Source of the DNA: Bacteroidota bacterium
GTDB lineage: Bacteria; Bacteroidota; Bacteroidia; Chitinophagales; Chitinophagaceae
Direction of reading: 5' to 3'
NCBI GenBank assembly: GCA_037975885.1
Contig: JBANFS010000005.1
Location: 66,504-130,503 of the forward strand
DNA length: 64,000 nt
Part shown: piece after piece, positions 5,454 to 25,823 of the stretch
Position numbering within the stretch: position 1 is the stretch's first letter
Layout: each line of letters opens with the position of its first letter
Made by a program: the position numbers and the translations under genes
Notes under the pieces: model-generated
The model's database searches: none
Seen by the model: the letters and a program-made list of their open reading frames with translations, nothing else
Told to the model about the DNA's origin: nothing

Positions 5454-5554
5454 TCATTTTCGCCGCTCATTTATGCGGGTGTTTCGCAGTAAAGATTTTA
5501 TTGCTATTTTACAGCACCGGAAAATCAATAGTTTACAACGATAACGAGCCATTT

Positions 5555-7054
5555 ATGAATCAAACTATTTCTCAGAAAGGTCACCCTAAAGGATTGTATG
5601 TACTTTTTGCCACAGAAATGTGGGAGCGCTTTAACTATTATGGTATGCGTGCCATATTGGTCCTGTTTATGACTAAGGCACTCATGTTTGACAAGATTTT
5701 TGCTTCTAATATATATGGTAGTTATACAGGATTAGTTTTTTTGACACCACTAGTGGGCGGTTATGTAGCTGATAGGTATTGGGGCAATAAGCGTTCTATT
5801 ATTTTAGGAGGATTGGTGATGGCTATTGGCGAGTTTGTTTTATTTTTTTGCGGCTCTATGTATAAGACTAATCCAGAAATTGCTGGGTTGTTGTTTTTTG
5901 CAGGTCTGGGGCTCATGATAGCAGGCAATGGATTTTTTAAGCCCAATATTTCTGCCATGGTGGGGCAGTTGTATCCCGAAAATGATAAACGAAAAGATTC
6001 GGCGTACACTATATTTTATATGGGTATCAATACGGGTGGTGCCATTGGCCCCTTCGTGTGCGGATTTTTTGGTGACACGGGTAACCCCGCCGATTTTAAA
6101 TGGGCATTTTTAGCTGCTGGAATAGGGATGTTATTGAGTGTTTTGGTAATGCACTTTTTCCATAATAAATATGTAGTAGATCAAAATAATCAAGTCCTAG
6201 GTTTAACACCAAAAGATGCGCCAGCTGCTGCCAATAAACCATTGTATGTGTTTGGCGGCTTATTTATTTTTTCGTTGATCTCAGTTGCACTGATATATGT
6301 AGAAGCCAATGTATTTAGTTATTTATTTTATTTATTACTTGGCTCCATTTCACTTATTGCGTTTTTAATTTTTTCTGATAAAACATTAAGTGCTTTAGAA
6401 AAGAAAAAAGTTTCTGTCATTTTTGTAGTATCATTTTTTGTGATATTTTTTTGGAGTGCTTTTGAGCAAGCGGGCGCTTCCCTTACTTTTTTTGCAGAAG
6501 AGCAAACCAATCGTACACTCGGTTCTTATACCATACCTTCTAGTTTTTTCCAATCAATGAATTCCACTTTTGTTGTGGCATTTGCTCCGCTATTTGCATG
6601 GCTTTGGTTAAAGCTTGGAAAATTTGAACCAGGCTCTCCAGCTAAAATGGCACTCGGATTATTTTTATTAGCACTTGGTTATTTATGGATTGCATTTGGG
6701 GTACACAATGTGGCACCTGGTGTTAAAGTAAGTATGATTTGGCTTACGGGTATGTATGCGCTTCATACTTGTGGAGAGCTTTGTTTATCGCCTATTGGAC
6801 TATCACTTGTAAATAAATTAGCCCCTGTTAAATTTGCATCTTTGCTAATGGCCGTATGGTTTACAGCTAATGCATTTGCCAATAAATTTGCAGGGCTGTT
6901 AAGTGGTTTATATCCAGATGGTAAAACAACGTATTTTGCTGGCTATGCCATCACCAATTTATTTGACTTTTTTATTTTATTTGTTGCAATGGCAGGCACC
7001 GCTGCATTCGTTTTATTTTTAATTGCACGTAAGCTAAAAAACATGATGGACTAA
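5555..7054 (+). CDS. POT/PTR family proton-dependent di/tripeptide transporter (MFS)
   Basis: GHPKGLYVLFATEMWERFNYYGMR (ExxERFxYY), GNGFFKPNIS, FYMGINTG and ELCLSPIGLS motifs; likely start MNQTISQKG at 5555. Confidence 0.93.
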   Translation: MNQTISQKGHPKGLYVLFATEMWERFNYYGMRAILVLFMTKALMFDKIFASNIYGSYTGLVFLTPLVGGYVADRYWGNKRSIILGGLVMAIGEFVLFFCGSMYKTNPEIAGLLFFAGLGLMIAGNGFFKPNISAMVGQLYPENDKRKDSAYTIFYMGINTGGAIGPFVCGFFGDTGNPADFKWAFLAAGIGMLLSVLVMHFFHNKYVVDQNNQVLGLTPKDAPAAANKPLYVFGGLFIFSLISVALIYVEANVFSYLFYLLLGSISLIAFLIFSDKTLSALEKKKVSVIFVVSFFVIFFWSAFEQAGASLTFFAEEQTNRTLGSYTIPSSFFQSMNSTFVVAFAPLFAWLWLKLGKFEPGSPAKMALGLFLLALGYLWIAFGVHNVAPGVKVSMIWLTGMYALHTCGELCLSPIGLSLVNKLAPVKFASLLMAVWFTANAFANKFAGLLSGLYPDGKTTYFAGYAITNLFDFFILFVAMAGTAAFVLFLIARKLKNMMD

Positions 7055-7095
7055 TCTATCATGATCCATTTTAAAATTTCTTAAAAACCAACTAT

Positions 7096-9153
7096 ATGTC
7101 TGAGCAAAAAAAAGTTTTTAAACCCTTTATTGCACCTGAAGAAAATGTAAAAGAACTAACCGTTAAATCTATTTTAGTGGGCAGTTTGTTTGGCGTTATT
7201 TTTGGAGCAGCAACCGTTTATCTTGCATTAAAAGCAGGTCTTACCGTATCCGCTTCTATTCCTATTGCAGTAATAGCCATTACACTTGGACGTAAGTTTT
7301 TAAAAACAACGATACTAGAAAATAATATCATTCAAACCACAGGATCTGCTGGTGAAAGTATTGCTGCGGGTGTAGCATTTACCCTTCCTGGATTTTTATT
7401 TTTATCATCACCAGATAGTGCCGAATATTTTAATTACCTCACCATTTTAATTCTTGCTATTATTGGCGGGCTCCTTGGTACACTTCTAATGATTCCGCTG
7501 CGTAAGGCGCTTATTGTTAATGAACATGAAAATCTTCCTTACCCAGAAGGAACGGCTTGTGGCGATGTATTAAAAGCTGGTGAAAAAGGTGGTGATTTTG
7601 CAAAAACAGCTTTTTGGGGATTAGGTGTTGCTTTTGCGTATGCCATTTTGCAAAAAGTATTACATGTGATTGCAGAAACCCCTTATTATGCAACCAAGCA
7701 AATCAATAAATTTTTTCCTTCTGCTAAAGTAAGTGGTGAAATCACACCAGAATATATGGGTGTGGGATATATTATTGGTCCAAAAATTGCAGGCGTACTC
7801 GTTGCGGGTAGTGTACTTAGTTGGATGGTGTTTATTCCACTTTTATCAACCCTTGTACCTGCCGATGTGATTGCGGCGCAACTGGTAAAACTTGGTTACT
7901 TAATGGATCTTGCAAAACCAGGTGGTAAAGGTGGATGGGACCCGGTAACGCATCAGTTTAATGATTATTCGGCAGCTATTTATTATGCCTATATCAGACA
8001 AGTTGGTGCAGGTGCTGTAACGGCGGGTGGTATCATTACTTTGTTAAAAACCATTCCTACGATTGTTAAATCTATCAAAGGAAGTTTTGCTTCTTTACAA
8101 AATAGTAAAGACCCAAGCGCTGCAGCTGTTTTAAGAACCGAAAAAGATTTGAGTTTAAAAGTAGTGGGCATTGGAAGTTTAGCACTTGTTGCACTCATTG
8201 CTGTATTACCGCAAGTGCCTGGTGAAAGCATTTTACAAAAACTATTAATTGGTGTGCTGGTGATTTTATTTGGTGCACTTTTTGTAACCGTATCGTCACG
8301 GATTGTAGGACTTATTGGTTCTTCAAATAACCCAATTAGTGGTATGACCATTGCTACTGTAATGGGCACGAGTTTAATATTTTTAAGTGTAGGCTGGACG
8401 GGCCAAGCATTTGAACCACTTGTACTTGTTGTAGGTGGAATGATATGTATTGCAGCTGCTAACGCGGGCGCTACATCCCAAGATTTAAAAAGCGGTTACA
8501 TTGTTGGAGCTACACCACGCAATCAACAAATTGCACTTTTTGTGGGAGCGATTGTTTCATCGATTGTGATAGGTTTAACGGTTAAATTTTTAGATCGTCC
8601 TACCACCGAAATGATGGAACAGGGTATTCAGCACGCGATTGGTTCTGATAAATATCCAGCACCGCAGGCTACGCTCATGGCTACTTTAATTAAAGGTATT
8701 TTATCACAAAATTTAGATTGGCAATATGTAGTGGTGGGGGTGTTTTTAGCCATCACCATGGAGCTATGCGGTATTAAATCTTTAAGCTTTGCGATTGGTG
8801 TTTATTTGCCACTTGCAACTACACTACCTATATTTATTGGTGGCGCAATTAGAGGTATTGTTGAAGCGAAAGACAAAAAAGCAAACAAGCCAGCTGCAAG
8901 TGCCGAAGACGAAGACTTAAGTAAAGGGTCATTATTTGCAACTGGGCTAGTTGCAGGCGGTGCTGTTGCCGGAGTGCTTATTGCTTTTGCAACGGGTACA
9001 AGTGCAGGCGAAAAGTTTTTGGCATCCATTAGCCTAGAAGAAGGCATTGTACATAGCGTTTCTCAAAATGGATACTTTTTAATTGGTACTTTGTTTTTTG
9101 CTGCCATGGGCGCTATTTTATACAAAGTGGCCACTAAAAAAGCGGATGCATAA
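7096..9153 (+). CDS. OPT family oligopeptide transporter
   Basis: GLTVSASIP, ENNIIQT.GSAGES, LPYPEG.AC, SNNPISGMTIAT, QDLKSG and YPAPQATLM motifs typical of bacterial OPT/YSL-like proteins. Confidence 0.92.
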   Translation: MSEQKKVFKPFIAPEENVKELTVKSILVGSLFGVIFGAATVYLALKAGLTVSASIPIAVIAITLGRKFLKTTILENNIIQTTGSAGESIAAGVAFTLPGFLFLSSPDSAEYFNYLTILILAIIGGLLGTLLMIPLRKALIVNEHENLPYPEGTACGDVLKAGEKGGDFAKTAFWGLGVAFAYAILQKVLHVIAETPYYATKQINKFFPSAKVSGEITPEYMGVGYIIGPKIAGVLVAGSVLSWMVFIPLLSTLVPADVIAAQLVKLGYLMDLAKPGGKGGWDPVTHQFNDYSAAIYYAYIRQVGAGAVTAGGIITLLKTIPTIVKSIKGSFASLQNSKDPSAAAVLRTEKDLSLKVVGIGSLALVALIAVLPQVPGESILQKLLIGVLVILFGALFVTVSSRIVGLIGSSNNPISGMTIATVMGTSLIFLSVGWTGQAFEPLVLVVGGMICIAAANAGATSQDLKSGYIVGATPRNQQIALFVGAIVSSIVIGLTVKFLDRPTTEMMEQGIQHAIGSDKYPAPQATLMATLIKGILSQNLDWQYVVVGVFLAITMELCGIKSLSFAIGVYLPLATTLPIFIGGAIRGIVEAKDKKANKPAASAEDEDLSKGSLFATGLVAGGAVAGVLIAFATGTSAGEKFLASISLEEGIVHSVSQNGYFLIGTLFFAAMGAILYKVATKKADA

Positions 9154-9155
9154 AT

Positions 9156-9187
9156 AAACAGTAAGAGTCATTAAACTTTTACTGTTT
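9156..9187 (+). terminator. AT-rich stem-loop between OPT and DUF1800 (possible weak terminator, processing site or operator)
   Basis: AAACAGTAAGAGT-cattaa-ACTTTTACTGTTT: 13-bp stem with one G-U pair and a 6-nt loop; only a short U-tract. Confidence 0.4.
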
Positions 9188-9205
9188 TAAAGGCTCTAAT
9201 AGAAT

Positions 9206-11134
9206 ATGAAGATTAACCTTACAAGCCAAACACATACGCGTGCCTTAGGGTATGTATTTGTGTTTGGCTTTTTGTTTTTAATGGCATTTATACAGCCAGC
9301 GCCTAAAATGCCCTATAAAAAAGCGGGTTTAACGGAGCAGGAAGCTGCCTTACACTTACTTAACCGCTTTACGTTTGGTCCGAGGCCAGGTCAGGTTGAG
9401 GAAGTAGTGAAGCAAGGACTCGAAAACTGGTTTTTGGAACAGTTGCAACCTGCAAAAGACAACGAAACGGTTCGTGTAAAGCTTTCTAGCTATTCTGCCC
9501 TTGCCATGCCCACCGATTCTATTGTAAATACGTACTTGCAGCCTGCGCAACTTTTAAGACTTGCCATTGCAAAAGGATATATCGATAAAGACTCGGTAGA
9601 TAAAACAGATAGACCCGCTTATAGAGAAGCCCTCAAAAAACTCCAAGCCGATTATGGTTTTAGGCCACTACAAGAATTACAGCGCGAACTGATCAATCAA
9701 AAAGTAATTAGAGCGGTGTATAATGATGCGCAATTACAAGAAGTGCTAACTGATTTTTGGTTCAATCATTTTAATGTATCACTCACAAAAAATCAGGTGC
9801 AACAACTGGTGTTACCATACGAGCGTGATGCGATTAGGCCCAATGTTTTAAATAATTTTTCATCACTACTTTTTGCAACAGCAAAGCATCCGGCTATGCT
9901 ACTCTATTTAGACAATGCACTAAGCATCAGCAATGAAAATGAATATGCAAAGCGTCAATTAAAAGCAGCACAGCGATTACTTGATTTAAATGCTGCTAAA
10001 AAAATGCTCGCTGCTGCTAGTGTTTCTGAAGATTCTATGCAAAAAATGGATGCTATGGAAAATCAGATGACAACGCAAATTAAAAAAAGAAAATCCCAGG
10101 GGTTAAATGAAAACTATGCGCGCGAAGTAATGGAATTGCATACCCTTGGAGTGAATGGCGGATACACGCAATCTGATGTTACGGAACTAGCGCGCGCCTT
10201 AACAGGCTGGGGCGTTAAACCCATGTATGAAGAAGGACCACTTGCTAAAAGGTTTTCAAATATCCCGCCTGCACAACTTGCACGCAGGGGTTTGCAAGTA
10301 GAAGATTGTTTTTTATATAGTGCTGAAAAGCATGACGAAAATGCAAAAACAATTCTTGGAAAAACTTTTCCTGCAAATGGTGGTTACAACGAAGGTATGG
10401 AAGCGCTTGCTATGCTTGCATCACACCCTGCAACGGCGCGATTTATTGCTACCAAACTAGCTGCTAAATTTATAGCGGACGATCCACCAACAGCCGTTGT
10501 AGAAGAAATGACTAAGACATTTATAGCATCTAAAGGTGATATTAAAGAAGTGTTATTAACCATGGTCATGCATCCTGGTTTTTGGATCAAGGCCAAAGAA
10601 AAAGAAAAAATAAAATCTCCATTTGAACTTGCGGTGAGTGCAGTACGCGCAACGGGTACCGAAGTGGTAGCTCCCTATCAGGTGTTTGCCTGGTCCGAAA
10701 AAATGGGTCAAAAATTTTATTTTTATCAGGCGCCAACGGGCTTTCCGGATAGGGCAAATTTTTGGATCAACACAGGATCACTATTAAATAGAATGAATTT
10801 TGGAATGGCCCTTGCTGCGCAAAAAATACCTGGTTTAAAAACCAATTTATTAGCGCTCAATCAAAATCATGAGCCTGAAAGTGTAGAAGAAGCACTTCAA
10901 ATTTATACCAAACTACTATTACCGGTTGCCAATCAAAAAGAAAATTCGGAGCGTATTATGTCTATTGTGCGCGCACAAAATATCGATCAAAAAATTGCAT
11001 CCGCCACTAAAGACACCGGCGGTATGCAAGACATGCAAAAGGAATCCATATCTGATATGAATAATACACCATTAAAAAGTATGGCACAGGTGGTTGGTGT
11101 GATTATTGGTTCACCTGCGTTTCAGCGCAAATAA
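9206..11134 (+). CDS. DUF1800 family protein with N-terminal signal/anchor
   Basis: HLLNRFTFGPRPG, FWFNHFNV, HPAMLLYLDN, NENYAREVMELHTLG, ARALTGW and KIKSPFE motifs; hydrophobic N-terminus. Confidence 0.9.
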   Translation: MKINLTSQTHTRALGYVFVFGFLFLMAFIQPAPKMPYKKAGLTEQEAALHLLNRFTFGPRPGQVEEVVKQGLENWFLEQLQPAKDNETVRVKLSSYSALAMPTDSIVNTYLQPAQLLRLAIAKGYIDKDSVDKTDRPAYREALKKLQADYGFRPLQELQRELINQKVIRAVYNDAQLQEVLTDFWFNHFNVSLTKNQVQQLVLPYERDAIRPNVLNNFSSLLFATAKHPAMLLYLDNALSISNENEYAKRQLKAAQRLLDLNAAKKMLAAASVSEDSMQKMDAMENQMTTQIKKRKSQGLNENYAREVMELHTLGVNGGYTQSDVTELARALTGWGVKPMYEEGPLAKRFSNIPPAQLARRGLQVEDCFLYSAEKHDENAKTILGKTFPANGGYNEGMEALAMLASHPATARFIATKLAAKFIADDPPTAVVEEMTKTFIASKGDIKEVLLTMVMHPGFWIKAKEKEKIKSPFELAVSAVRATGTEVVAPYQVFAWSEKMGQKFYFYQAPTGFPDRANFWINTGSLLNRMNFGMALAAQKIPGLKTNLLALNQNHEPESVEEALQIYTKLLLPVANQKENSERIMSIVRAQNIDQKIASATKDTGGMQDMQKESISDMNNTPLKSMAQVVGVIIGSPAFQRK

Positions 11135-11138
11135 ATAA

Positions 11139-12401
11139 ATGAAAATGGCAAACAGAAGGGCTTTTATGAAATCGGGTGCGCTTGCATTATTTGCTACTGG
11201 CATAAGTGGGCTTCCCCGTTTTATAACAGAAGCAGCAGCGGGCACACAAATGCTACCGATGTATAAAAAAAATAAAACCTTGGTTTGTATTTTCCAGCGC
11301 GGTGCGATGGATGGCTTAATGGCTGTAACACCCTTTGCAGACCCTGCTTTACAACTTGCAAGGCCAGGTTTATTTATGCGTCCAACAGCTAGCGAAGGTG
11401 GTTTATTTAATTTGGACGACCGTTACGCTATGCACCCTTCACTAAAAAGTTTGTTTCCTTATTTTAATGCAAAAAATTTAGCGGTGGTGCATGGGGTGGG
11501 TAGCCCTAATACGACTAGAAGTCATTTTGATGCCCAGGATTATATGGAGTCGGGCACACCGTTTGCAAAAGGTACCGCAAGTGGTTGGCTTAATAGAGCA
11601 GTAGGTTTACTTAATCATGCACCTACGCCGTTTTCTGCGGTAAGTGTTACAAGTTCTTTACCGCGTAGTTTATATGGTGATGCGGATGCGATTGCTATCA
11701 ATAATTTACAAGATTTTTCGATCCAACTAAAAGGCAACCCAATGGCTGCTGGTAAAGCGGCAACTTCATTTGAAGAGCTTTACGATCAAACTGCAAACGA
11801 GCTACTCAATAAAACAGGTAAAGAAAGTTTTGAAGCACTCAAAATTTTAAAGTCAAACAATATCAAAAATTACCAGCCTGCAAATGGCGCGGTGTATCCA
11901 AACTCGGCACTTGGTAATTCTTTGAAACAAATTGCAACACTCATTAAAATGGATGTTGGATTAGAAGTAGGTTTTGCAGAGAGCGGTGGTTGGGATACGC
12001 ATTTTAACCAGGGTACAACAAACGGTATTTTTGCACGTAACCTAAAAGATTTTTCAGATAGTATTGCCGCGTTTTGGCAAGATCTTGGAGAACGCCACGA
12101 TGATGTTACGCTGATGACCATGACTGAATTTGGCCGAACCGTAGCGCAAAATGGAACCGGCGGAACCGATCATGGTAGAGCAAGCTGCCTATTTGTTTTA
12201 GGCAATGATGTGGCTGGCGGAAAAGTATACAGTAATATGGGAAGCCTTGCCAAAGAAAACCTCGAAGACAATAGAGACCTACCTGTTACCACCGATTTTA
12301 GAGCAGTGTTTAGTGCAGTTGCAGAAAATCACTTGCAGTTAAAAACAAATGGTAACTTATTTCCCGACTGGTCAGGTGATTCATTAAAAATGATGCTATA
12401 G
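11139..12401 (+). CDS. DUF1501 family protein with Tat signal peptide
   Basis: NRRAFMK twin-arginine motif; FQRGAMDGL, RSHFDAQ, GGWDTH, TEFGRT and GTDHG motifs; 4 nt after DUF1800. Confidence 0.9.
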   Translation: MKMANRRAFMKSGALALFATGISGLPRFITEAAAGTQMLPMYKKNKTLVCIFQRGAMDGLMAVTPFADPALQLARPGLFMRPTASEGGLFNLDDRYAMHPSLKSLFPYFNAKNLAVVHGVGSPNTTRSHFDAQDYMESGTPFAKGTASGWLNRAVGLLNHAPTPFSAVSVTSSLPRSLYGDADAIAINNLQDFSIQLKGNPMAAGKAATSFEELYDQTANELLNKTGKESFEALKILKSNNIKNYQPANGAVYPNSALGNSLKQIATLIKMDVGLEVGFAESGGWDTHFNQGTTNGIFARNLKDFSDSIAAFWQDLGERHDDVTLMTMTEFGRTVAQNGTGGTDHGRASCLFVLGNDVAGGKVYSNMGSLAKENLEDNRDLPVTTDFRAVFSAVAENHLQLKTNGNLFPDWSGDSLKMML

Positions 12402-14333
12402 TTTTCCGTTTTTAATTTCGTCTACAACAGCTGGATCTAATAGCGTACTTGTATCGCCTAAATTTTCTGTTTCCCCTTCTGCAATTTTGCGAAGAATACG
12501 GCGCATAATTTTACCACTTCTTGTTTTTGGAAGACCTGATACAAATTGTATTTTATCTGGTTTTGCAATCGCTCCAATAATCCGCGTAACGGTTTGTAAA
12601 ATATCTTTTCGTACAAGTTCACCAGTACCGTGTGTGTCCTGTGCATGCGATCCACCATATATTACATACGCATAAATGCCTTGCCCTTTTACGTCATGCG
12701 GATAACCAACCACAGCGCTCTCTACAACACCGGCGTGCATGTTAATGGCGTTTTCTACTTCGGCGGTTCCAATTCTATGACCACTTACATTGAGTACGTC
12801 GTCAACCCTTCCTGTAATTCTAAAAAATCCATCTTTATCTTTTAATGCACCATCGCCCGTAAAATACATATTCTCGTAAGTAGCAAAATAATTGGTTCTG
12901 CAACGCTCATGATCACCGTAGGTAGTGCGTAAAATAGATGGCCATGGCGATTTGATACAAAGGTTTCCAGAGATGGTTTCATCGCCTTCCGGGACTACTT
13001 CTTTACCGTTTTCATCTACCAGTATCATTTCGAGACCTGGCATGGGAAGTGTTGCCCAGCTTGGCTTTGCAGGCGTTATGCCCGCTAAATTTGAAATCAG
13101 ACAACCACCGGTTTCTGTTTGCCACCAAGTGTCTACGATAGGACAGCGGCCTTTGCCTACATTTTGATCATACCAGTGCCATGCTTCTTCGTTGATAGGT
13201 TCCCCAACGGTTCCTAATACTTCTAGTGACGATAAATTTTTTCCTTGAAGTGGACCTAAACCAAAACCCATTAAACTACGGATGGCTGTTGGCGCCGTGT
13301 ATAAAATATTGACTTTGTATTTATCTACTACATCCCAAAATCTTCCGGCGTCAGGCCAGGTAGGAATGCCTTCAAATAATAGTGTGGTAGCACCAGCGCT
13401 TAATGGTCCGTACACGATATAACTATGTCCTGTAATCCAACCAATGTCTGCGGTACAAAAATGAATTTGACCAGGCTTGTACTGAAATACATTTACAAAT
13501 GTGTAGTTGGTATACACCATATAACCACCGCAGGTATGCACCACGCCTTTTGGTTTTCCTGTAGAACCCGAAGTGTATAAAATAAATAAAGGATCTTCGG
13601 CGTCCATTTCTTCGGCTTCAATAAAACTGATTCCTTTTTCTTCTACTTGTTTCATTTCATCTTCCCACCAACAGTCGCGTCCTTTAATCATAGAAACTGG
13701 CGTGCGTGTGCGGGTTGCAACAATAACGCGCTTAACGGTTTTATTTCCAATGAGCGCATCATCAATCACTGATTTTAATGGAATGTCTTTAGCACCTCTG
13801 TATGCGCCATCACAAGTAACTATGAAGGCTGCATTTGCGTCTAATAAACGGTCTGCAATACTTTGTGCCGAAAATCCACCAAACACCACAGAGTGAATGG
13901 CGCCAATGCGGGCGCATGCAAGCACTGCAATAGCCAGTTCTGGAATCATACCCATGTAAATACAAACACGGTCACCTCTTTGAACGCCATTGTTTTTAAG
14001 TACTTGCGCAAACTGACAAACCTTTTCAAGGAGTTTGCTATAGGTGAGTACTCGACCCGCTTCATCAGGGGCATTGGGCTCCCAAATAAGTGCAGGTAAA
14101 TGTCCTTTGGTAGGAATATGTCTATCCAAACAGTTTTCGGTGATATTTAATTTACCACCTTTAAACCATTCTACTTTTGGTTCTTTAAAATTCCATTCAA
14201 GTGTAGTGTCCCATTTTTTACGCCATGTAAAATGTTCTGCAACCTCGCCCCAAAAAGCAGCAGGGTCCTCAATACTTTTTTTGTATGCTTCTTTATACGC
14301 GTCAAAACTTGTAAGCTGATAAGGATAGGTCAT
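12396..14333 (-). CDS. acs: Acetate--CoA ligase (AMP-forming acetyl-CoA synthetase)
   Basis: YTSGSTGKPKG, DTWWQTETG, GRVDDV and PKTRSGKIMRR (acetylated Lys) motifs. Confidence 0.97.
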   Translation of the reverse strand: MTYPYQLTSFDAYKEAYKKSIEDPAAFWGEVAEHFTWRKKWDTTLEWNFKEPKVEWFKGGKLNITENCLDRHIPTKGHLPALIWEPNAPDEAGRVLTYSKLLEKVCQFAQVLKNNGVQRGDRVCIYMGMIPELAIAVLACARIGAIHSVVFGGFSAQSIADRLLDANAAFIVTCDGAYRGAKDIPLKSVIDDALIGNKTVKRVIVATRTRTPVSMIKGRDCWWEDEMKQVEEKGISFIEAEEMDAEDPLFILYTSGSTGKPKGVVHTCGGYMVYTNYTFVNVFQYKPGQIHFCTADIGWITGHSYIVYGPLSAGATTLLFEGIPTWPDAGRFWDVVDKYKVNILYTAPTAIRSLMGFGLGPLQGKNLSSLEVLGTVGEPINEEAWHWYDQNVGKGRCPIVDTWWQTETGGCLISNLAGITPAKPSWATLPMPGLEMILVDENGKEVVPEGDETISGNLCIKSPWPSILRTTYGDHERCRTNYFATYENMYFTGDGALKDKDGFFRITGRVDDVLNVSGHRIGTAEVENAINMHAGVVESAVVGYPHDVKGQGIYAYVIYGGSHAQDTHGTGELVRKDILQTVTRIIGAIAKPDKIQFVSGLPKTRSGKIMRRILRKIAEGETENLGDTSTLLDPAVVDEIKNGKL

Positions 14334-14402
14334 GGCTTGTCGTTTGAAGTCATAAATATACGTTACTAACTATTTTATTATTCATTTATTACGCAAAGAA
14401 TT

Positions 14403-14424
14403 AATAAACGCTTGTTCGTTTATT
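14403..14424. promoter_or_regulatory. Perfect inverted repeat in the acs/MFS divergent promoter region (candidate operator)
   Basis: AATAAACG-cttgtt-CGTTTATT. Confidence 0.4.
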
Positions 14425-14487
14425 GAGGCGTAAAAAGTTGGAAAAATGCGTTGGTTGGCGTAAGTTGTTGCTACTATTGTTTAGCAC

Positions 14488-16014
14488 ATGAAAAAACAAA
14501 ATAAAATTTGGCAGGTGATTACTGCCTCGTCCCTTGGTACCTTAATTGAGTGGTACGATTTTTATATTTTTGGAAGCCTCGCTACCGTTATTGCGGGTCA
14601 GTTTTTTCCTAAAACAAATCCAACGGCGGCGCTTTTATCTACACTAGCCACTTTTGCTGCTGGTTTTATTGTAAGGCCTTTTGGTGCGCTTGTTTTTGGA
14701 AGACTAGGTGATTTGGTAGGCCGTAAGTATACTTTTTTATTAACACTTGTTTTGATGGGTGGATCAACATTTGCGATTGGGCTCGTGCCTAGTTACGAAT
14801 CTATTGGATTTGCAGCACCAATTATTGTATTAACGCTTCGTTTGCTGCAAGGCCTTGCGCTTGGTGGAGAATATGGCGGCGCTGCTACTTATGTGGCAGA
14901 GCATGCGCCTGCAGGAAGAAGGGGTTATTATACTTCATGGATTCAAACAACGGCAACACTTGGTTTATTTGTTTCATTAAGTGTGATTTTATTTACGCGC
15001 CATAGTTTAGATATTGACCCGGCTGTATCGATTGCAAAATTTAATGCATGGGGTTGGCGTATTCCGTTTTTGTTTTCAATTGTACTTGTGGGTGTTTCAA
15101 TTTATATCCGTTTAAAAATGCAGGAGTCTCCGCTGTTTTCTAAATTAAAATCGGAAGGTGCTATTTCTGTAAATCCACTCAAAGAAAGTTTTGGCCATAA
15201 AGAAAATTTAAAGATGGTTTTGCTGGCGCTTTTTGGTGCAACCATGGGACAAGGTGTGGTGTGGTATACCGGTCAATTTTATGCGCAATCATTTATTGAA
15301 AATGTTTGTAAAATAGATTTTGATCAGTCGCGTACCATTTTAATTTGGGCCATTTTATTTGGCACGCCGCTATTTGTGGTGTTTGGTTCTTGGAGCGATA
15401 AAATTGGTAGAAAATGGATTATGCTAGTGGGTATGTTTCTGGCTGTTATCACATATAAGCCTTTATTTAAAGGGCTTTTAGAGCTTTCAGATACGACCAC
15501 AAAAACCGAAGTGGTAGCTGCTGCAACTTCAAAAATTAATTCAGTTTCTATTCCTAATACACAAAATTTTGTACGAACAGCACTGTCCACAAAATCTTAC
15601 ACAGATGGCACCGTCGTAACCACCACTACCACCGATACTTTGTATGCAAATCCTGCACAAACAACAATAAAACCCGTTGTTAAAATAAGCAAAGTGCTTA
15701 CGAATGGCATTTATTGGAAAATGGTACTTATTGTATTTATCATGATTGTGTATGTAACCATGGTATACGGGCCTATCGCTGCATTTTTAGTAGAATTATT
15801 CCCAACAAAAATTAGGTATACCTCCATGTCATTACCCTATCATATTGGTAATGGTGTGTTTGGTGGCCTCACGCCTTTTATTGCAACATTACTCACAACT
15901 ATGTATACCGCAGATGCACTTGCTGGTCTTCAATACCCAATTATTGTAGCTGCCGTTTCTGTAATTATTGGCACCCTGTATCTCGATTCAAAAATTAACA
16001 CCAAACACGATTAA
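14488..16014 (+). CDS. MHS-family MFS transporter (metabolite:H+ symporter), probable carboxylate uptake
   Basis: GTLIEWYDFYIFG, RLGDLVGRK, RLLQGLALGGEYGGA, SDKIGRK and ELFPT.IRY motifs; divergent from acs. Confidence 0.88.
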   Translation: MKKQNKIWQVITASSLGTLIEWYDFYIFGSLATVIAGQFFPKTNPTAALLSTLATFAAGFIVRPFGALVFGRLGDLVGRKYTFLLTLVLMGGSTFAIGLVPSYESIGFAAPIIVLTLRLLQGLALGGEYGGAATYVAEHAPAGRRGYYTSWIQTTATLGLFVSLSVILFTRHSLDIDPAVSIAKFNAWGWRIPFLFSIVLVGVSIYIRLKMQESPLFSKLKSEGAISVNPLKESFGHKENLKMVLLALFGATMGQGVVWYTGQFYAQSFIENVCKIDFDQSRTILIWAILFGTPLFVVFGSWSDKIGRKWIMLVGMFLAVITYKPLFKGLLELSDTTTKTEVVAAATSKINSVSIPNTQNFVRTALSTKSYTDGTVVTTTTTDTLYANPAQTTIKPVVKISKVLTNGIYWKMVLIVFIMIVYVTMVYGPIAAFLVELFPTKIRYTSMSLPYHIGNGVFGGLTPFIATLLTTMYTADALAGLQYPIIVAAVSVIIGTLYLDSKINTKHD

Positions 16015-18951: not shown

Positions 18952-19608
18952 ATGACTAAAAAAGAAAGATACGCCGGCGTCATTGCTTATTTTGAAGCGC
19001 AGGTTCCTATCGCGGAAACCGAGCTTATATACAATAATCCTTTTGAGCTATTAGTAGCCGTTATTTTATCGGCGCAGTGTACCGACAAACGCGTGAATCT
19101 TACCACACCTGCCATTTTTGCAAAATTTCCAACGCCACAAAAAATGGCAAAAGCTAGTTTTGACGAAATGTTTGCGCTCATAAAAAGCATTTCTTATCCA
19201 AGTAATAAGTCTAAACATTTAATTGGCATGGCTAATTTACTGCTGTCAAAATTTGGCGGCGAAGTGCCCATGACGGTAGATGAACTAGTGGAACTTCCAG
19301 GGGTGGGTAGAAAAACGGCTAACGTTATTACCAGTGTTATTGATCAGCAACCCAATATGGCCGTGGATACACACGTATTTAGGGTAAGTAAAAGACTGGG
19401 GCTTGTGGCACAAAAAGCGAGTACGCCCCTTGCCGTGGAAAAAGAACTCATAAAAAATATTCCTTCGGAACTGGTGCACAAAGCACACCACTGGCTAATA
19501 TTACATGGCAGGTATACCTGTTTAGCTAGGTCGCCAAAATGTGAAAACTGTGGCCTGCAAACAAATTGCCGATATTACAATACCAAGGTATTAAAAGTCA
19601 AATCCTAG
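18952..19608 (+). CDS. nth: Endonuclease III
   Basis: LVAVILSAQCTD, HhH motif LPGVGRKTA, VDTHVFR and C-x6-C-x2-C-x5-C [4Fe-4S] motif; start MTKKERY at 18952. Confidence 0.96.
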   Translation: MTKKERYAGVIAYFEAQVPIAETELIYNNPFELLVAVILSAQCTDKRVNLTTPAIFAKFPTPQKMAKASFDEMFALIKSISYPSNKSKHLIGMANLLLSKFGGEVPMTVDELVELPGVGRKTANVITSVIDQQPNMAVDTHVFRVSKRLGLVAQKASTPLAVEKELIKNIPSELVHKAHHWLILHGRYTCLARSPKCENCGLQTNCRYYNTKVLKVKS

Positions 19609-22600
19609 CGAGAAATAATAGAGCGGCTTTCCTTTAAATACGCCTTTCATTGGCCATCCAGCATCAAGCTTCATAAAGTAACCTAGTAAGGTACTTCTTA
19701 CACCAAAGCCATAACCACCTGCAAAAGGCCCAAGACCACCCGCATCGAGTTTCACCACCACTGGAGAGTTAACATCAACAATCACGTCACCTGGGCGTTT
19801 GATGCCATTGTACTTGCCATTCCAAGCTGTTCCTAAATCTATAAACTGCGTGATTTGGAAGTTGCGTAAAAATGCGTTGTTGATAGGTCTATTAAATATG
19901 GTTGCAAAAAGAGGCAGTCTAAATTCTGAATTGATTACAAATGCATTGTTGCCGTTTGCAATATTTTGTTGGTAGCCTCTCATGTTTACAGCTAATGATT
20001 GGAAGGCATAGCTCTGATCCTGCGCTGGAAAATTTTGACTATTAAACTTTGGGTTGATCCAGCTATCAACACCCCCTAGGTAATAAATAATTTTTTGTCC
20101 GCCCCACGAAAAATCAGCAGCAGCTCTTCCGGCCCAAATAAAATTTCTGTAAATTTTATAGTAGTAGCGTGCATCAAATCCTAGATTTAAAGTTGCCTTA
20201 CCATTGTTCATTTCTGTTTTAAGGCTTGGCATATTGAGGTCAAAGAAAATTTTATAACGCAGTCCGTTCCAAATATTTTGTGTTGGGTTGATGGTATTAT
20301 CATGCACATACTCGATGCGTGATACCATAAATTTACTAACCGTGTCGGGGTAGGAAAGTGCACCTGGGTCTGGATAGCCTACTCTATTATCGTAAGATTT
20401 TAAAATGCCTCTATCAACGCGAAGGCCAAAAGTGACACGTAAACTTTTTACTTCATTAAATGGGTACGCAATATTACCTTGGAATAAATTGGTAATAAGC
20501 ATATTAGAATAAGGCGTATTAAAGTAGTTGGTTACATTGCTTCTATAGTAAGTGGCGCCCCAGTCTAATCTCTTTTTAAAGTTCTGGTAGCTAAAAATGA
20601 TATCCTTGTCTTTGAGGTCGGTTCCAAAACGAATACCACCCATAAACTTATGGTCCTCTAATAAATCGCTAGTGCCAATTCTTAAATTGAAGTTGAAATT
20701 ATTACCATTGTTTAATTGAATGGGGCCTGCGCCACCTGCATAAGGTTGATATCTATTGAGTAATAAGTTGTTTGAAAATCCACTCAAAATATAGTCGCTA
20801 CTAAATTTAAGTCGGTAGTCAAATAGTTTGGAATCACTTAAAATATTTTTTGCCTTAGCAGATAATAGATCCGCTTTTTTTACAGAAAAACTATCTGCGG
20901 GTTCGTCGGAAAATTCTGATTGAAAAAGATTGGCTTTTGCAGAAGTGTCAATTGTTTTTTTGTAGACAATGGCGTTACCTTCTGCTGCTCTCATTTCATC
21001 CATTACTTTTTTCATGTAAGTAGTGGGTCTCAAATTGAGGTTTCTCTTTTTTAGTGCGATAGAGTCTACGCGTAGTTTGTATAAGAATTTATAATCGCCT
21101 TCACGTCTTACTTCGCTCACCTGGCCTTTATCGCCAGCTATTCTAGTTTCTAGCAGTGAGCTTTGGTAATTGGTAATAGGGAATGAGTACGTAGAGTCTT
21201 TGTAAACTTGAAAAAAACTAATGCTATCTGGCTTTTCTCTTTGCCATGCATTTAGGGTAGAGTCAATTTCTTTGGGTGATGCGTTGCGAAGCATATCGTC
21301 ACCAATATGATAGAGTGTATCTAGTCCATTTCTTTGCGTTGCAAAAAATCCTGCCCATCTGTTACCAACGCCGTTTTCATCAGCTACAAAAGTAAAGTGG
21401 TTGGTGTTGTATCCCATTGGATAGCTTGCATTTCCGTATTTTAAATTGGTAAGTTGTGTGATTTGTTTGTTTTTACTATTGTTTAAATAGTCAACCATAA
21501 ACACGTTAAAATGATATTTGCTAGGTATTGCGGTGTCGCTATTTGGCGCATACGGGCTAGGCCTGTTAGACGAAAATAAAATACCAGATTTGTTAGGAAA
21601 AGAAACAAAACTTGGATGCAAATCATCATAAACGTCGTCTGTAAACTGCGTTAATTGGTTTTCTTCAATTTTGTAGGTAAAAATATCGGTATGGCCATTT
21701 TTTGCAGCACTCATCACTACATTATTGGCGTCTAGCATATAGGATGCATCTAAAATTTGATCGATGCCTGCAATTTTTTGCTTGAACCGCTTAATGCGCG
21801 TTACCACGTCATACACAAACATTTTAATGGCACCTTCTTCCGAATAGATGACTAATAATTTGGTTCCTTTATTATCCCAGGCCATAATTGGATAGTTGGG
21901 ATTGATATCTCCTTGATTCGTTCTTACGCCAGATTTTAAAAGCACACGACCATCGTAAAAATTTTCCATCAGCTTTACACTGTAAATGCCTCTGTTAAAT
22001 TCCACTACTGCATAATTGTTGCTTTTTGGATTTGGGTTGGCTTGAAATCTGAAATAATCTTTTTTAGAAACGTCTTCTGAAATATTCAATTGGCCTTTTG
22101 GTGAATTTTTTCGCTGACGAATGTCTTTAGCATATTTATCTTGTTCATATTCCATGAATTCGGATAATACTTCTTTGAATTTCTTTTTGCAAACTTTTAA
22201 AAAGGCACTATTTAAGTTTTTATAAATTCTAGCTAGATAAAGTAGATATGTGATGTTTTCTTTTCTATACTTTACGCTGATAAAATTCCAGAATGCATGC
22301 CCTGCAAGGGTTGGCTTGTCAAATGCAAATTGATAAAACGTATTGTATCTGCCACTAAGCATAGCACTTTTAAGCGCGTCGTCTTTTTCTACACTCCAGT
22401 TTTCGGCAGCATACACAACATAACCATCGAGCATCCATTTGGGTAAATCTAATAATGCTTGGTTGCTTGCAAATTCTCCAATGTCTTCTCCAAAAAGTAA
22501 ATTATCAGATAATACTTTGGCGATGCCTTCTTTAATTTGTCTTTTTAAATTAGCGTGATTGCCATCAAAGTAAACCACAATTTTATTGTTCACCAGTTTT

Positions 22601-22944
22601 GTTAGACCACCAGCACTTTGCCAGTCTGATCCTAGGCCAATATTGCTGCTTTTATAATCATCATAATTACTGTATACAATAATGTTGGCCCTACGTTGTA
22701 AAGAATATTCTACAAAATTTTCGATAGCGCCTAATTCTTGCTCTGCAACCTGTGCCACAAACTTGCCAAGTTCTACCCCACCTTGTGATGTATATGTATT
22801 AAAATTGGGGGATTGATGAAATTTCCACACCAGTTTTTTATATTGTACTCTATTTTTACCAAACTCTACAGCATTGACCTGCGACTGGCCAAAAACAGCC
22901 AAACTACACATGATAAAAATTAGTCCTATTCTTTTCAATTTCAT
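19591..22944 (-). CDS. Large outer-membrane protein: signal peptide, peptidase-MA-like domain, TolB/PD40-like propeller and Omp85-type C-terminal barrel
   Basis: EFGKNRVQY N-terminus, propeller-like repeats (DDLHPSF, ILFSSNR), MRGY and FIDLG Omp85 motifs, terminal YFSLGFDF beta-signal. Confidence 0.7.
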   Translation of the reverse strand: MKLKRIGLIFIMCSLAVFGQSQVNAVEFGKNRVQYKKLVWKFHQSPNFNTYTSQGGVELGKFVAQVAEQELGAIENFVEYSLQRRANIIVYSNYDDYKSSNIGLGSDWQSAGGLTKLVNNKIVVYFDGNHANLKRQIKEGIAKVLSDNLLFGEDIGEFASNQALLDLPKWMLDGYVVYAAENWSVEKDDALKSAMLSGRYNTFYQFAFDKPTLAGHAFWNFISVKYRKENITYLLYLARIYKNLNSAFLKVCKKKFKEVLSEFMEYEQDKYAKDIRQRKNSPKGQLNISEDVSKKDYFRFQANPNPKSNNYAVVEFNRGIYSVKLMENFYDGRVLLKSGVRTNQGDINPNYPIMAWDNKGTKLLVIYSEEGAIKMFVYDVVTRIKRFKQKIAGIDQILDASYMLDANNVVMSAAKNGHTDIFTYKIEENQLTQFTDDVYDDLHPSFVSFPNKSGILFSSNRPSPYAPNSDTAIPSKYHFNVFMVDYLNNSKNKQITQLTNLKYGNASYPMGYNTNHFTFVADENGVGNRWAGFFATQRNGLDTLYHIGDDMLRNASPKEIDSTLNAWQREKPDSISFFQVYKDSTYSFPITNYQSSLLETRIAGDKGQVSEVRREGDYKFLYKLRVDSIALKKRNLNLRPTTYMKKVMDEMRAAEGNAIVYKKTIDTSAKANLFQSEFSDEPADSFSVKKADLLSAKAKNILSDSKLFDYRLKFSSDYILSGFSNNLLLNRYQPYAGGAGPIQLNNGNNFNFNLRIGTSDLLEDHKFMGGIRFGTDLKDKDIIFSYQNFKKRLDWGATYYRSNVTNYFNTPYSNMLITNLFQGNIAYPFNEVKSLRVTFGLRVDRGILKSYDNRVGYPDPGALSYPDTVSKFMVSRIEYVHDNTINPTQNIWNGLRYKIFFDLNMPSLKTEMNNGKATLNLGFDARYYYKIYRNFIWAGRAAADFSWGGQKIIYYLGGVDSWINPKFNSQNFPAQDQSYAFQSLAVNMRGYQQNIANGNNAFVINSEFRLPLFATIFNRPINNAFLRNFQITQFIDLGTAWNGKYNGIKRPGDVIVDVNSPVVVKLDAGGLGPFAGGYGFGVRSTLLGYFMKLDAGWPMKGVFKGKPLYYFSLGFDF

Positions 22945-23660: not shown

Positions 23661-25823
23661 CTACTGTGCGAGGTATGTTTTTAAAAGCATGAGTCCTATA
23701 TTTTTATAGGGAGGTATATAGTCTTGAAAACTTGTTTTAGCTGCACCTTTTAGTTGATCATTCATTTGTTTCCAAATGGCAGGCCAAACAATATCTTGTC
23801 CTTTTTCAATCGTCTCCGCTATTTGGCTTAAAAGCGCAGCGTTGATAACGCCTTTGCCTATTTGTTTGCTGGCAATTACCTGTGTTTCTGGGGCGCGCTT
23901 TAGTACCGCTGCTAATTTTTGATAACCGCCACAACTCCCTAGTAGCACAAGTTTGACACTACTGTCAATGCTAGCGACGGTATGGTTTGCATAATAGCTA
24001 TGGCCTCTATGCACAATAATGCTAGGCGTTATTTGCTTTTCTGATAAATAAGCCGATAAACTATCCTGGGCTTTTAAATCAAGTTCTTCTTTTTCATCGA
24101 GTGGCGCATTTGCATAAATACTTATACGGCCATTTGTGCTACTCACTTCCGTAAAATATTTTTGTTTGATTATTTTCCAGCCAGTCTTGTTAAAACTATT
24201 TATAAAGGCATTAAAAATTTGTGCGCCATCTTTATCGCCATAAAAATATTGTCTGATAACTACTTTTTGTTGGTTATTTTTTAATGTGTTCATCGAAAGA
24301 ACTCCAACGTTATTGAGTAGTGCATGCGTTGTATTATTATTTCTATTGTCTTCTAAAAAAGCTGTGCACAATTCATCTAATAAAGCATAGAGACTGCTAC
24401 TTTTATTTTTTCTAATTTCTGTAAGTAATAAATTTTGCATGCTTGTATCTGTGATACTAGAAAAGGCATCTGCAACATCTACAGCGTCTTCTAATGTAGG
24501 CGCCTTGTCCAAATCACGCACAAAACTGCGCATATAATAACCACTTATATCGAGTGGCATATGAGATAAAAAATTTTGTAGCGTATTGTAATTCGCTGCT
24601 ACTGCAATAAATTTTTTAAAAAAATCTTGATGTACTATGGTGAGTAAATCACTTGTGGTTTTGGTCCCAAGTTTTTGAATGATGAGCGGATAAACGCCTG
24701 ATACAAAACTAGATGTATAGAGTTCGTCGGCACCTAGAACTGCAATATAATAGAGTTCATGCGGGCTTAAATTAGCTAGTTTTTTGAACCGAAAACTAGC
24801 TATCTCTGTTTGGTGTAAACCATTGATATCATTAACATACAGCTCCATCACAAGACTTTTAAGCCTCGATAATAGTGCCGCTTCTGCCACGAGCTTCTGG
24901 CCCATTTTTTTTCCTTCCACCTGTTGGATTCTCGTATGTACCAGAAGTTTAAAATAGTTTTCTGATTGGTCTTGTGGAATAAGCGGCGTGATGGTGTCGA
25001 TACTCATTTTACCAGTATAGAGCGCGTCCAAAAATGGAAAATAATAACGCCCGGTTTTCATAAATGCAAGCCTCCCAATCCATTTGACAAGTGGATGATT
25101 AATAGACTGAATTTTTTTACCAAGCGCACTTGGTGCTGCCGCATAATTGTATACTATTTCTGCATTTTTAAATGCAGCAGCGATAAGTATACTGTCGGCG
25201 TATCTGTTGCTAGAGATTTGTGGGCCTTGTTTATCCAATATTTGTAACACTTGCTCAGGATTGTTCTGACAGTTTTTTAAAACAATGATGTCTCTAGAAG
25301 CACCGTATCCTATATTATCAGTAAAGCTTTGGCTTGCCAATAAAATATTTCCAATACTTACATTTTCCTTTGCAATAACATCACTCATGTTAAGTCCTTT
25401 AGCGCTTAAGTGCATAGCTGTTGTGAACGCACGAACACATACGGCAACTTCTTCCGAATTTATTTTATTGAGTTTAAGTCCTAATTGAATTTCAGATAAT
25501 AAATTATTTAAGCCACGTAGCCATTTAAATTTTTCATTATCGGATAGCCCCAAATTTGATTCAATCCATTTTCTATTTTCAAAAACCGCAACTTGTAAAC
25601 TATCTTTTAGTGGTAAATTTTGGGCAATTGAAGGCAGCGTGATCAGGGCTTTTTCATTTTCAATGATATAATCATGACTCAACCCCCTGATGGTAGGAAT
25701 GGGCGGCATTTGATCACCCTTTTTAGTGGATTGAGCGGCTACGGTTATAGTGCATAGTACTGCCCATAGCATAAGGATTATTGGCAAATACACCGCTTTT
25801 AATATGTTGCTCTGGTTTTTCAT
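23661..25823 (-). CDS. Hypothetical exported 720-aa protein with possible C-terminal clan CD (CHAT-like) peptidase motif
   Basis: Signal-peptide-like N-terminus; mostly helical body; C-terminal IIVHRGHS...LVLLGSCGG. Confidence 0.6.
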   Translation of the reverse strand: MKNQSNILKAVYLPIILMLWAVLCTITVAAQSTKKGDQMPPIPTIRGLSHDYIIENEKALITLPSIAQNLPLKDSLQVAVFENRKWIESNLGLSDNEKFKWLRGLNNLLSEIQLGLKLNKINSEEVAVCVRAFTTAMHLSAKGLNMSDVIAKENVSIGNILLASQSFTDNIGYGASRDIIVLKNCQNNPEQVLQILDKQGPQISSNRYADSILIAAAFKNAEIVYNYAAAPSALGKKIQSINHPLVKWIGRLAFMKTGRYYFPFLDALYTGKMSIDTITPLIPQDQSENYFKLLVHTRIQQVEGKKMGQKLVAEAALLSRLKSLVMELYVNDINGLHQTEIASFRFKKLANLSPHELYYIAVLGADELYTSSFVSGVYPLIIQKLGTKTTSDLLTIVHQDFFKKFIAVAANYNTLQNFLSHMPLDISGYYMRSFVRDLDKAPTLEDAVDVADAFSSITDTSMQNLLLTEIRKNKSSSLYALLDELCTAFLEDNRNNNTTHALLNNVGVLSMNTLKNNQQKVVIRQYFYGDKDGAQIFNAFINSFNKTGWKIIKQKYFTEVSSTNGRISIYANAPLDEKEELDLKAQDSLSAYLSEKQITPSIIVHRGHSYYANHTVASIDSSVKLVLLGSCGGYQKLAAVLKRAPETQVIASKQIGKGVINAALLSQIAETIEKGQDIVWPAIWKQMNDQLKGAAKTSFQDYIPPYKNIGLMLLKTYLAQ

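Follow-up and report, generated by a model that had tools for sequence, protein, structure and literature searches.

In a 64 kb stretch of a Sediminibacterium (Chitinophagaceae) chromosome, hereafter the window, genes of the DUF1800 and DUF1501 families lie directly downstream of two genes for peptide importers of the POT and OPT families. The analysis indicated that DUF1800 and DUF1501 alone make up a functional unit, which, at a probability of about 0.7, is an autonomous bicistronic module for an exported metalloenzyme of the alkaline phosphatase (AP) type and its partner subunit. Judged from gene order across related genomes, POT and OPT appear to be ordinary peptide importers that stand upstream through lineage-specific synteny.

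DUF1800 and DUF1501 as a Conserved Gene Pair

The DUF1800 gene (9206–11134, plus strand) encodes a 642-amino-acid (aa) protein that matched PF08811 over profile positions 1–419 of 419 with 415.2 bits (vs. 26.1), and the DUF1501 gene (11139–12401, plus strand) encodes a 420-aa protein that matched PF07394 over positions 4–382 of 390 with 90.7 bits (vs. 27). Both proteins, as well as POT and OPT, scored above the curated Pfam/NCBIfam thresholds by a wide margin. An earlier reading of the window, made from the letters alone and here called the sequence-only reading, had described four co-oriented genes with gaps of 41 (POT/OPT), 52 (OPT/DUF1800), and 4 nucleotides (nt; DUF1800/DUF1501), and the listing of open reading frames (ORFs) recovered the same ORFs and gaps.

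Three sets of loci were used to evaluate the conservation of the pair. The Chitinophagaceae set comprised 80 loci around DUF1501 homologues of 68–98% identity, onto which the window proteins were mapped; DUF1800 stood immediately upstream of DUF1501 in all loci with upstream sequence, at small gaps, most often of 9–11 nt. The order DUF1800 then DUF1501 was also found in eight of eight annotated plasmid loci from four phyla (Alpha-/Gammaproteobacteria, Bacteroidota, Actinomycetota, and Acidobacteriota), namely those of Paracoccus, Azospirillum, Ensifer, Sphingomonas, Vibrio, Chondrinema, Miltoncostaea, and Acidisarcina. Metagenomes were scanned with a 4-sequence alphaproteobacterial DUF1501 alignment, as a 7-sequence cross-phylum one proved too divergent; the scan yielded 80 loci with 32–48% identity to the window DUF1501 plus four Chitinophagaceae-type loci at 64–73%. 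Among the 51 metagenome loci with at least 2.3 kb of upstream sequence, DUF1800 was directly upstream in 45, 1–1.9 kb distant in 2, and not found in 4. These counts agree with the sequence-only reading, which had called both families widespread, usually adjacent, and uncharacterised, and a full-text literature search found mentions of DUF1800 and DUF1501 but no functional study of either. Lone DUF1501 genes were seen at locus L120 (9875–11239), beside GT87 and CDP-diglyceride synthase genes, and at locus L169 (4314–5474), beside PilZ and OEP/HlyD genes; therefore, the partnership with DUF1800 is frequent, not universal. The DUF1800 proteins diverge faster than DUF1501, with identities of about 50 and 71%, respectively, across the same genomes.

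A neighbour census of the three closest ORFs on each side of the metagenome loci grouped 268 flanking ORFs into 188 clusters, the biggest of which occurred in 8 loci. Those that recurred belong to unrelated housekeeping families (E1 dehydrogenase, alpha/beta hydrolase, HD-GYP, Rieske, NuoB, PilZ, DoxX, OEP, and CarA), and no conserved third component of the pair was found among these neighbours. The pair is thus very probably an autonomous module.

Some individual neighbourhoods were also recorded. In one Chitinophagaceae clade (L066 at 8126–14648, also L068 and L050), genes for an SSF sodium:solute symporter, a Gfo/Idh/MocA oxidoreductase, and a Glucosamine_iso-family protein come after the pair in the same orientation, at gaps of 20–35 nt, with a CBM9 protein encoded divergently upstream, and a sugar-related context is possible there. 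On the Sphingomonas plasmid (L088, 1378–8119), the pair is immediately preceded, in the same orientation, by genes for a TonB-dependent receptor and for a PI-PLC-like phosphodiesterase. On the Chondrinema plasmid (L083, 3092–9173), the genes divergently upstream are those for a TonB-dependent receptor and for an EEP-family phosphatase. The neighbours on these two plasmids hint at organic-phosphate scavenging, though they are non-recurrent.

Export Signal and Predicted Active Site of DUF1501

The N-terminus of DUF1501 (MKMANRRAFMKSGALALFATGISGL...) fits the consensus S/T-R-R-x-F-L-K of twin-arginine translocation (Tat) signals; the signal covers residues 1 to about 35, in which NRRAFMK is followed by SGALALFATGISGL. 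In 84 homologues of 32–98% identity, R6 and R7 were at least 95% conserved, and the arginine pair together with hydrophobic residues was present in 79, which substantiates the Tat signal that the sequence-only reading had assigned to NRRAFMK. The Chondrinema homologue gave a sub-threshold match to Pfam TAT_signal (E 5.6e-4; 20.2 bits vs. 22.7). When the DUF1501 family profile was compared with PDB sequences, it touched only the Tat signals of AioB (arsenite oxidase) and NapA (nitrate reductase), at weak E-values.

The positions with at least 95% conservation in the same 84 homologues were R54, G55, D58, R75, R127, S128, H129, F130, E137, W150, and R153 in the first half of the protein, and W285, D286, H288, E330–R333, N338, T343, D344, H345, D386, and R388 in the second half. 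The motifs pointed out in the sequence-only reading (F.RGA.DG, SH, GWDTH, TEFGR, and DHG) are where conservation within the family is strongest. On the plus strand between 11310 and 12173, the codons of the putative active site, all in this conservation class, are those of D58 (11310–11312), S128–H129 (11520–11525), D286 (11994–11996), H288 (12000–12002), E330–R333 (12126–12137), and D344–H345 (12168–12173).

An AlphaFold model of DUF1501 was built on a shallow alignment of 69 sequences with about 70% identity. In the model, D58 follows strand 47–54, S128 opens helix 128–137 after strand 114–121, D286/H288 follow strand 277–284, and D344/H345 follow strand 323–329. D58, S128, D286/H288, and D344/H345 would thus occupy the topological positions that the first metal-binding Asp, the nucleophile, and the two Asp/His ligand pairs have in the AP superfamily. 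All listed Foldseek matches of the model in the PDB were members of the AP superfamily, that is, 3lxq, LtaS/LtaP, carbohydrate sulfatases, EptC, YejM, and PhoA; ten had E-values of 1e-3 or lower, with the best E-value at 2e-4 and probabilities up to 1.0. An AP-superfamily alpha/beta core was accordingly found by Foldseek, on a model of low confidence. An hhalign alignment of the 84-sequence DUF1501 profile with Escherichia coli PhoA was non-significant (probability 0.4%) and was used for colinearity only; it placed S128 on Ser102, D344/H345 on Asp369/His370, D286 beside Asp327/His331, and D58 four residues from Asp51. The resemblance of the motifs to AP/sulfatase metal-ligand positions, proposed in the sequence-only reading, therefore gained from the PhoA colinearity and the Foldseek matches, while the alignment itself did not reach significance.

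With a shallower DUF1501 profile, hhalign gave no significant match to E. coli AslA or PhoA. The sulfatase motif [CS]xPxR was absent from the window DUF1501, the conserved context of the nucleophile being R-S-H-F, and Pfam Sulfatase did not match the protein even at E ≤ 10; an identity as formylglycine (type I) sulfatase was ruled out on these grounds. Matches of cytochrome c peroxidase to the GGWDTH region (E about 0.4) were set aside as chance. Taken together, the model and the conserved residues suggest that DUF1501 is probably an AP-superfamily enzyme, and, with moderate confidence, that it would be a metalloenzyme of this superfamily with a serine nucleophile.

Export, Fold, and Invariant Residues of DUF1800

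The hydrophobic signal or anchor that the sequence-only reading had noted in DUF1800 was confirmed: an N-terminal signal peptide or membrane anchor spans residues 7 to about 30, forms a hydrophobic helix at 7–27 in the model, and is retained as a signal-like N-terminus in Chitinophagaceae orthologues and in 115 of 129 close representatives. A downstream start at M26 or M35, which would remove the signal, was rejected on the basis of this conservation. Among 48 diverse DUF1800 homologues, 36 had a hydrophobic N-terminus and a few had a Tat-like signal of their own; the DUF1800 of metagenomic locus L092 carries one (TRRDFLK) together with a lipobox-like LASC. A recognisable signal was lacking in six of the eight plasmid DUF1800 proteins (Paracoccus, Azospirillum, Chondrinema, Miltoncostaea, Ensifer, and Vibrio), and five of their DUF1501 partners have a Tat signal, the annotated Vibrio coding sequence beginning past the signal region. 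For these taxa, the signals are compatible with a co-export of DUF1800 with DUF1501 as a pre-formed complex. In Acidisarcina (L090, 3038–6805), DUF1800 is a 1255-aa protein whose DUF1800 domain is preceded by three IPT/TIG stretches and an Ig-like domain, both of them typical of exported proteins.

The AlphaFold2 model of DUF1800, built on an 83-sequence alignment, reached a predicted local distance difference test score (pLDDT) of 88.7 and a predicted template modelling score (pTM) of 0.87, and is mainly alpha-helical with a few short strands; a Chitinophagaceae-type helical-hairpin insertion at about 240–300 (246–296 in the model) is of lower confidence. Foldseek produced no match of this model in the PDB (best E 0.47; TM-score ≤ 0.12), and PDB sequence searches with the single protein and with the family profile returned nothing for DUF1800, a family of 14,387 clusters at 50% identity (E ≤ 1e-3). 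Its invariant polar residues, R54, H188, E302, N303, R306, E307, E310, D324, H376, K381, and R481, argue for a ligand-binding or catalytic site over a pure scaffold.

The window DUF1800 has one cysteine in total and no CxxCH motif. A haem-peroxidase-like reading of its motifs ELHTLG and WFNHF was dropped, as the confident model matches no peroxidase. PSD2/DUF1585 belongs to planctomycete PSCyt3-type proteins, and weak Pfam matches to its last 30 or so positions were observed in 7 of 49 DUF1800 proteins (best E 0.015), located at residues 426–456 of protein P0282, or about residues 410–445 of the window DUF1800. Such matches could reflect a distant kinship of the partner proteins or a chance helix match.

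The Upstream Peptide Transporter Genes

The POT/PTR2-family proton:oligopeptide symporter (5555–7054, plus strand) matched PF00854 with 192.8 bits and TIGR00924 with 324.5 bits (cut-off 130.2); its ORF opens at a TTG at 5501, and the ATG at 5555 matches the family-typical N-terminus. The OPT-family oligopeptide transporter (7096–9153, plus strand) matched PF03169 with 287.5 bits and TIGR00733 with 338.3 bits (cut-off 182.5).

In the 59 Chitinophagaceae loci with at least 3 kb of upstream sequence, OPT adjoined DUF1800 upstream in 43, was 0.6–5.2 kb off in 4, and was absent in 12. The OPT-positive loci also carried mreB-purD at the left and usually acs-MFS at the right, and OPT adjacency is therefore part of a larger housekeeping gene-order block. 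The 13 Chitinophagaceae loci without OPT fell into a few discrete clades on the DUF1501 tree, which is the pattern that lineage-specific rearrangement would be expected to leave. In these loci, both flanks were changed while DUF1800-DUF1501 remained intact, and the neighbours were dnaX, CBM9, patatin, MoaC/MoaB, and SulP, or SSF and Gfo/Idh/MocA with a downstream Glucosamine_iso-family gene.

POT stood upstream of OPT in the same orientation in just 14 of the 80 Chitinophagaceae loci, and its slot was taken in most other relatives by a minus-strand MFS gene with 24–31% identity over 200 residues. Beyond the family, neither OPT nor POT was found at any of the 8 annotated plasmid loci, and OPT was missing from 33 of the 34 diverse metagenome loci with room upstream, POT from all of them. 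The single metagenome locus with OPT (L153) has a DUF1501 that is 73% identical to that of the window, that is, of the Chitinophagaceae type. The POT of loci L005, L006, and L009 was only 72–73% identical to that of the window, though purD, OPT, and DUF1501 were 87–99% identical, and that of L001–L003 was 96% identical; the slot seems to hold divergent alleles, or to have undergone replacement by recombination within the population.

Transcription of the Pair and of the Transporter Genes

Assembled contigs from freshwater metatranscriptomes, which are strandless and whose depth is a rough proxy, were used to compare the RNA of the four genes. A contig of run X1 (5612–7373) bridged the POT/OPT junction with alike depth on either side, and the DUF1800/DUF1501 junction was bridged by contigs X5#28 (9353–11362) and X1#6 (11069–13325). 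The depths of OPT vs. the 5′ part of DUF1800 were 12.4 vs. 72.4 in X1, 12.5 vs. 88.4 in X2, and 0 vs. 15.4 in X5; the pair was thus 6–7-fold deeper than OPT in X1 and X2, and present in X5 with OPT near zero. This step reflects different RNA abundance, because DNA contamination would give flat coverage. The contig breaks fell between 9088–9238 and 9260–9353.

Right after the OPT stop codon, a terminator-like hairpin with a 13-bp stem, a 6-nt loop, and a U-rich 3′ arm was found at 9156–9187 on the plus strand (RNA fold −16.4 kcal/mol; z-score −3.9 vs. shuffles). In an alignment of close relatives, the 3′ half of the hairpin and the approximately 20 nt up to the DUF1800 ATG were conserved and the 5′ arm was variable; the invariant block reads CATTAAACTTTTAC(T/C)GTT...CTCTAATA. 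This conservation suggests a putative 5′ regulatory or leader element of DUF1800. Scans for sigma-70 promoter and terminator consensus scored no better than shuffles, the sigma-70 consensus being unsuited to Bacteroidota promoters, and no convincing TAnnTTTG −7 box was seen by eye upstream of DUF1800. These results indicated that POT and OPT are probably co-transcribed with each other, apart from the pair, and that the pair is likely regulated separately from OPT.

The first 300–600 nt of the DUF1800 mRNA (window 9260–9877) were 3–5-fold deeper than the remaining gene and DUF1501 (72 vs. 15 in X1; 88 vs. 32–50 in X2), an excess that might come from attenuation, from mixed strains, or from a stable 5′ fragment. 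At the other end, RNA contigs continued out of DUF1501 into acs.

Comparison With Known Systems

A predicted DUF1800-DUF1501 operon with a Tat motif, co-transferred with chitin synthase in some Proteobacteria, was described by Gonçalves et al. (2016; PMC5122149), and Kamneva et al. (2012; PMC3542564) reported DUF1501 paired with PSCyt/PSD1 in Planctomycetes–Verrucomicrobia–Chlamydiae (PVC) bacteria and likewise inferred a Tat-exported, cofactor-containing enzyme. The pair is thus already recognised as a "conserved unknown", of which the window copy is a further member. It shares with the pairs of Dickeya, Pectobacterium, and Agrobacterium vitis (PMC5122149) the Pfam families, the order, the short gap, and the twin-arginine signal of DUF1501. 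It differs from other pairs in its long Bacteroidota-type DUF1800 of 642 aa with its own signal/anchor and helical insertion, most plasmid copies being about 455–545 aa, and its neighbours are peptide transporters, whereas those of the co-transferred pairs are chs and a sugar epimerase (PMC5122149). The DUF1501 genes with PSCyt1/PSCyt2/PSD1 in Planctomycetes, Verrucomicrobia, and Lentisphaerae (PMC3542564, PMC5615132) are similar in that a Tat-signal DUF1501 stands beside a large, mostly uncharacterised exported partner; in contrast, the partner here is DUF1800, which has no cytochrome c motif and resembles PSD2 only weakly, below significance, over some 30 residues.

To the AP superfamily (PhoA, NPP, iPGM, sulfatases, and LtaS/EptA), the resemblance of DUF1501 is at the fold level, with an Asp after the first beta strand, a Ser at a helix N-terminus, a D-x-H, and a D-H in the order of PhoA. 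DUF1501 differs from these enzymes in having no homology detectable by HMM or hhalign and no C/S-x-P-x-R motif, and in the obligate second gene here. PhoX, PhoD, and Tat hitchhikers such as AioAB and the small and large hydrogenase subunits also combine a twin-arginine signal with a cofactor-type periplasmic enzyme, and six of the eight plasmid DUF1800 partners resemble hitchhiker subunits in having no signal. The folds are, however, unrelated to those of PhoX and PhoD, and the window DUF1800, unlike hitchhikers, has a predicted Sec-type signal/anchor of its own; co-export with DUF1501 would therefore be unnecessary here.

Proposed Mechanism and Alternative Explanations

According to the explanation we prefer, DUF1501 would be the catalytic subunit, with an AP-superfamily fold, and would be exported folded via Tat, probably metal-loaded. 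Ser128 at the N-terminus of its helix is the likely nucleophile, and a one- or two-metal centre, with Asp58, Asp286/His288, and Asp344/His345 as its probable ligands, would catalyse phosphoryl or sulfuryl hydrolysis or transfer from an extracytoplasmic ester via a covalent seryl intermediate; the odds that the substrate belongs to the phosphate or sulfate esters are about even. DUF1800 would reach the periplasmic side by its own Sec-delivered N-terminal signal/anchor and may stay membrane-anchored, its route presumably varying in other taxa with a Tat signal in some and no signal in others. At the periplasmic face, it may bind DUF1501 and supply substrate recognition and/or membrane tethering via its invariant Arg/His/Glu/Lys cluster. 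Of the earlier proposal of a periplasmic two-subunit metalloenzyme that feeds OPT/POT, the conserved pair and the AP-like, Tat-signal DUF1501 sustain the enzyme, while the feeding of OPT/POT falls away.

Several points weigh against this explanation. Confidence in the DUF1501 model is low (pLDDT 59, pTM 0.71) and lowest in the motif loops, and its Foldseek TM-scores were only about 0.3. The hhalign probabilities of DUF1501 vs. PhoA (0.4%) and vs. AslA (0.2%) were both non-significant, and hidden Markov model (HMM) searches of PDB sequences, with single proteins and family profiles, found no catalytic-domain relative of DUF1501. The physical complex of DUF1800 and DUF1501, towards which we lean, has gene order as its sole argument, and 4 of the 51 diverse loci carry DUF1501 with no detectable adjacent DUF1800. 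OPT is adjacent in 73% of the Chitinophagaceae loci, which leaves room for a lineage-specific functional link; the RNA evidence is from strandless contigs of approximate depth; and the OPT-DUF1800 gap is bridged by contig X1#4 (7945–9238) and by the low-depth X10 (9081–9260), which would allow for some read-through.

The sequence-only reading had taken all four genes as one system, in which OPT and/or POT take up a peptide or metal-chelate made or altered by the periplasmic pair. Co-orientation, the short gaps, the 43 of 59 Chitinophagaceae loci with OPT next to DUF1800, and an RNA contig across the OPT-DUF1800 gap speak for it, and other transporters sometimes adjoin the pair elsewhere (SSF in L066/L068/L050, TonB-dependent receptors on the Sphingomonas and Chondrinema plasmids, and, on the latter, also a sugar-porter MFS). 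However, the transporters occur in none of the 8 plasmid loci and are missing from 33 of the 34 diverse metagenome loci, the adjacency of OPT rides on the mreB-purD … acs-MFS block and is lost clade by clade, POT is confined to 14 loci, two runs show the pair RNA at 6–7 times the OPT level and a third shows it with next to no OPT RNA, and a terminator-like hairpin follows OPT. Since relatives do not consistently keep OPT/POT linked to the pair and regulation seems to be separate, findings that the sequence-only reading had itself named as telling against its proposal, we do not hold the four genes to be one system; that explanation is very unlikely, and any functional link of OPT/POT to the pair is highly improbable.

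The chemistry of the pair could also be read otherwise. An envelope-modifying transferase of the LtaS, EptA, or OpgB kind, in place of a nutrient-scavenging hydrolase, would attach a phospho-headgroup to a glycan or lipid that has been exported, with DUF1800 as a membrane-anchored partner instead of the transmembrane domain of those enzymes. LtaS/LtaP, EptC, YejM, and 3lxq are among the best Foldseek matches, the N-terminal hydrophobic helix of the window DUF1800 may persist as an anchor, the pair is co-transferred with chitin synthase and a sugar epimerase in some Proteobacteria (PMC5122149), and some copies have rfb, LCP-family, or GT87 genes nearby. The ranking comes, however, from a low-confidence model on which sulfatases and PhoA score alike, envelope-biosynthesis neighbours were non-recurrent in the census, and the D...S...DxH...DH pattern, judged from established active-site knowledge, appears nearer to two-metal phosphatases than to the E/T/DH of LtaS/EptA; we regard a transferase as unlikely. 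A redox or electron-transfer module with a haem-binding DUF1800 would follow by analogy with the PSCyt/PSD1 partners in Planctomycetes and Verrucomicrobia, as PVC DUF1501 genes pair with PSCyt1/PSCyt2/PSD1 bearing cytochrome c motifs (PMC3542564), 7 of 49 DUF1800 proteins weakly match PSD2/DUF1585, and DUF1800 has invariant histidines. Against this, the single cysteine and the lack of CxxCH in the window DUF1800, a model that resembles neither a haem protein nor another PDB fold, and PSD2 matches of only about 30 residues that fall short of significance make such a module extremely unlikely.

Other Features of the Window

The closest genomes are Sediminibacterium metagenome-assembled genomes with 94–98% protein identity, and the arrangement recurs in the cultured species S. 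roseum, S. soli, and S. ginsengisoli. Upstream of POT, the housekeeping genes mreC, mreB, and purD lie on the minus strand, and downstream of the pair the convergent acs is followed by genes for a metabolite:H+ MFS symporter and an ABC ATPase, and by enolase, ftsB, and nth genes. The acs gene (12396–14333, minus strand) shares 6 nt with the 3′ end of DUF1501 (12396–12401), and there is therefore no space for a terminator between the two genes. Two minus-strand ORFs further along, at 19591–22944 (1117 aa) and 23661–25823 (720 aa), had no Pfam match at E ≤ 1e-5.

Implications

With the four-gene "system" dissolved, a false lead is gone, and peptide/chelate transport stays unattached to these DUFs. 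The pair itself is a good target for characterisation, being present in many phyla, expressed well, compared with its neighbours, in metatranscriptomes from lakes, and endowed with a predicted AP-type active site, and DUF1800 adds to the appeal with a confident model that has no solved structural relative. Tentatively, and at somewhat less than even odds, the pair may represent a widespread two-subunit class of extracytoplasmic enzymes, in which a Tat-exported AP catalytic subunit depends on a partner with a fold not in the PDB, the partner is delivered by Sec, by Tat, or piggy-back according to lineage, and the ester substrate is outside the known phosphatase/sulfatase families. The substrate, once found, would annotate tens of thousands of genes, and could uncover a new route by which extracytoplasmic phosphorus or sulfur esters are turned over or the envelope is modified.

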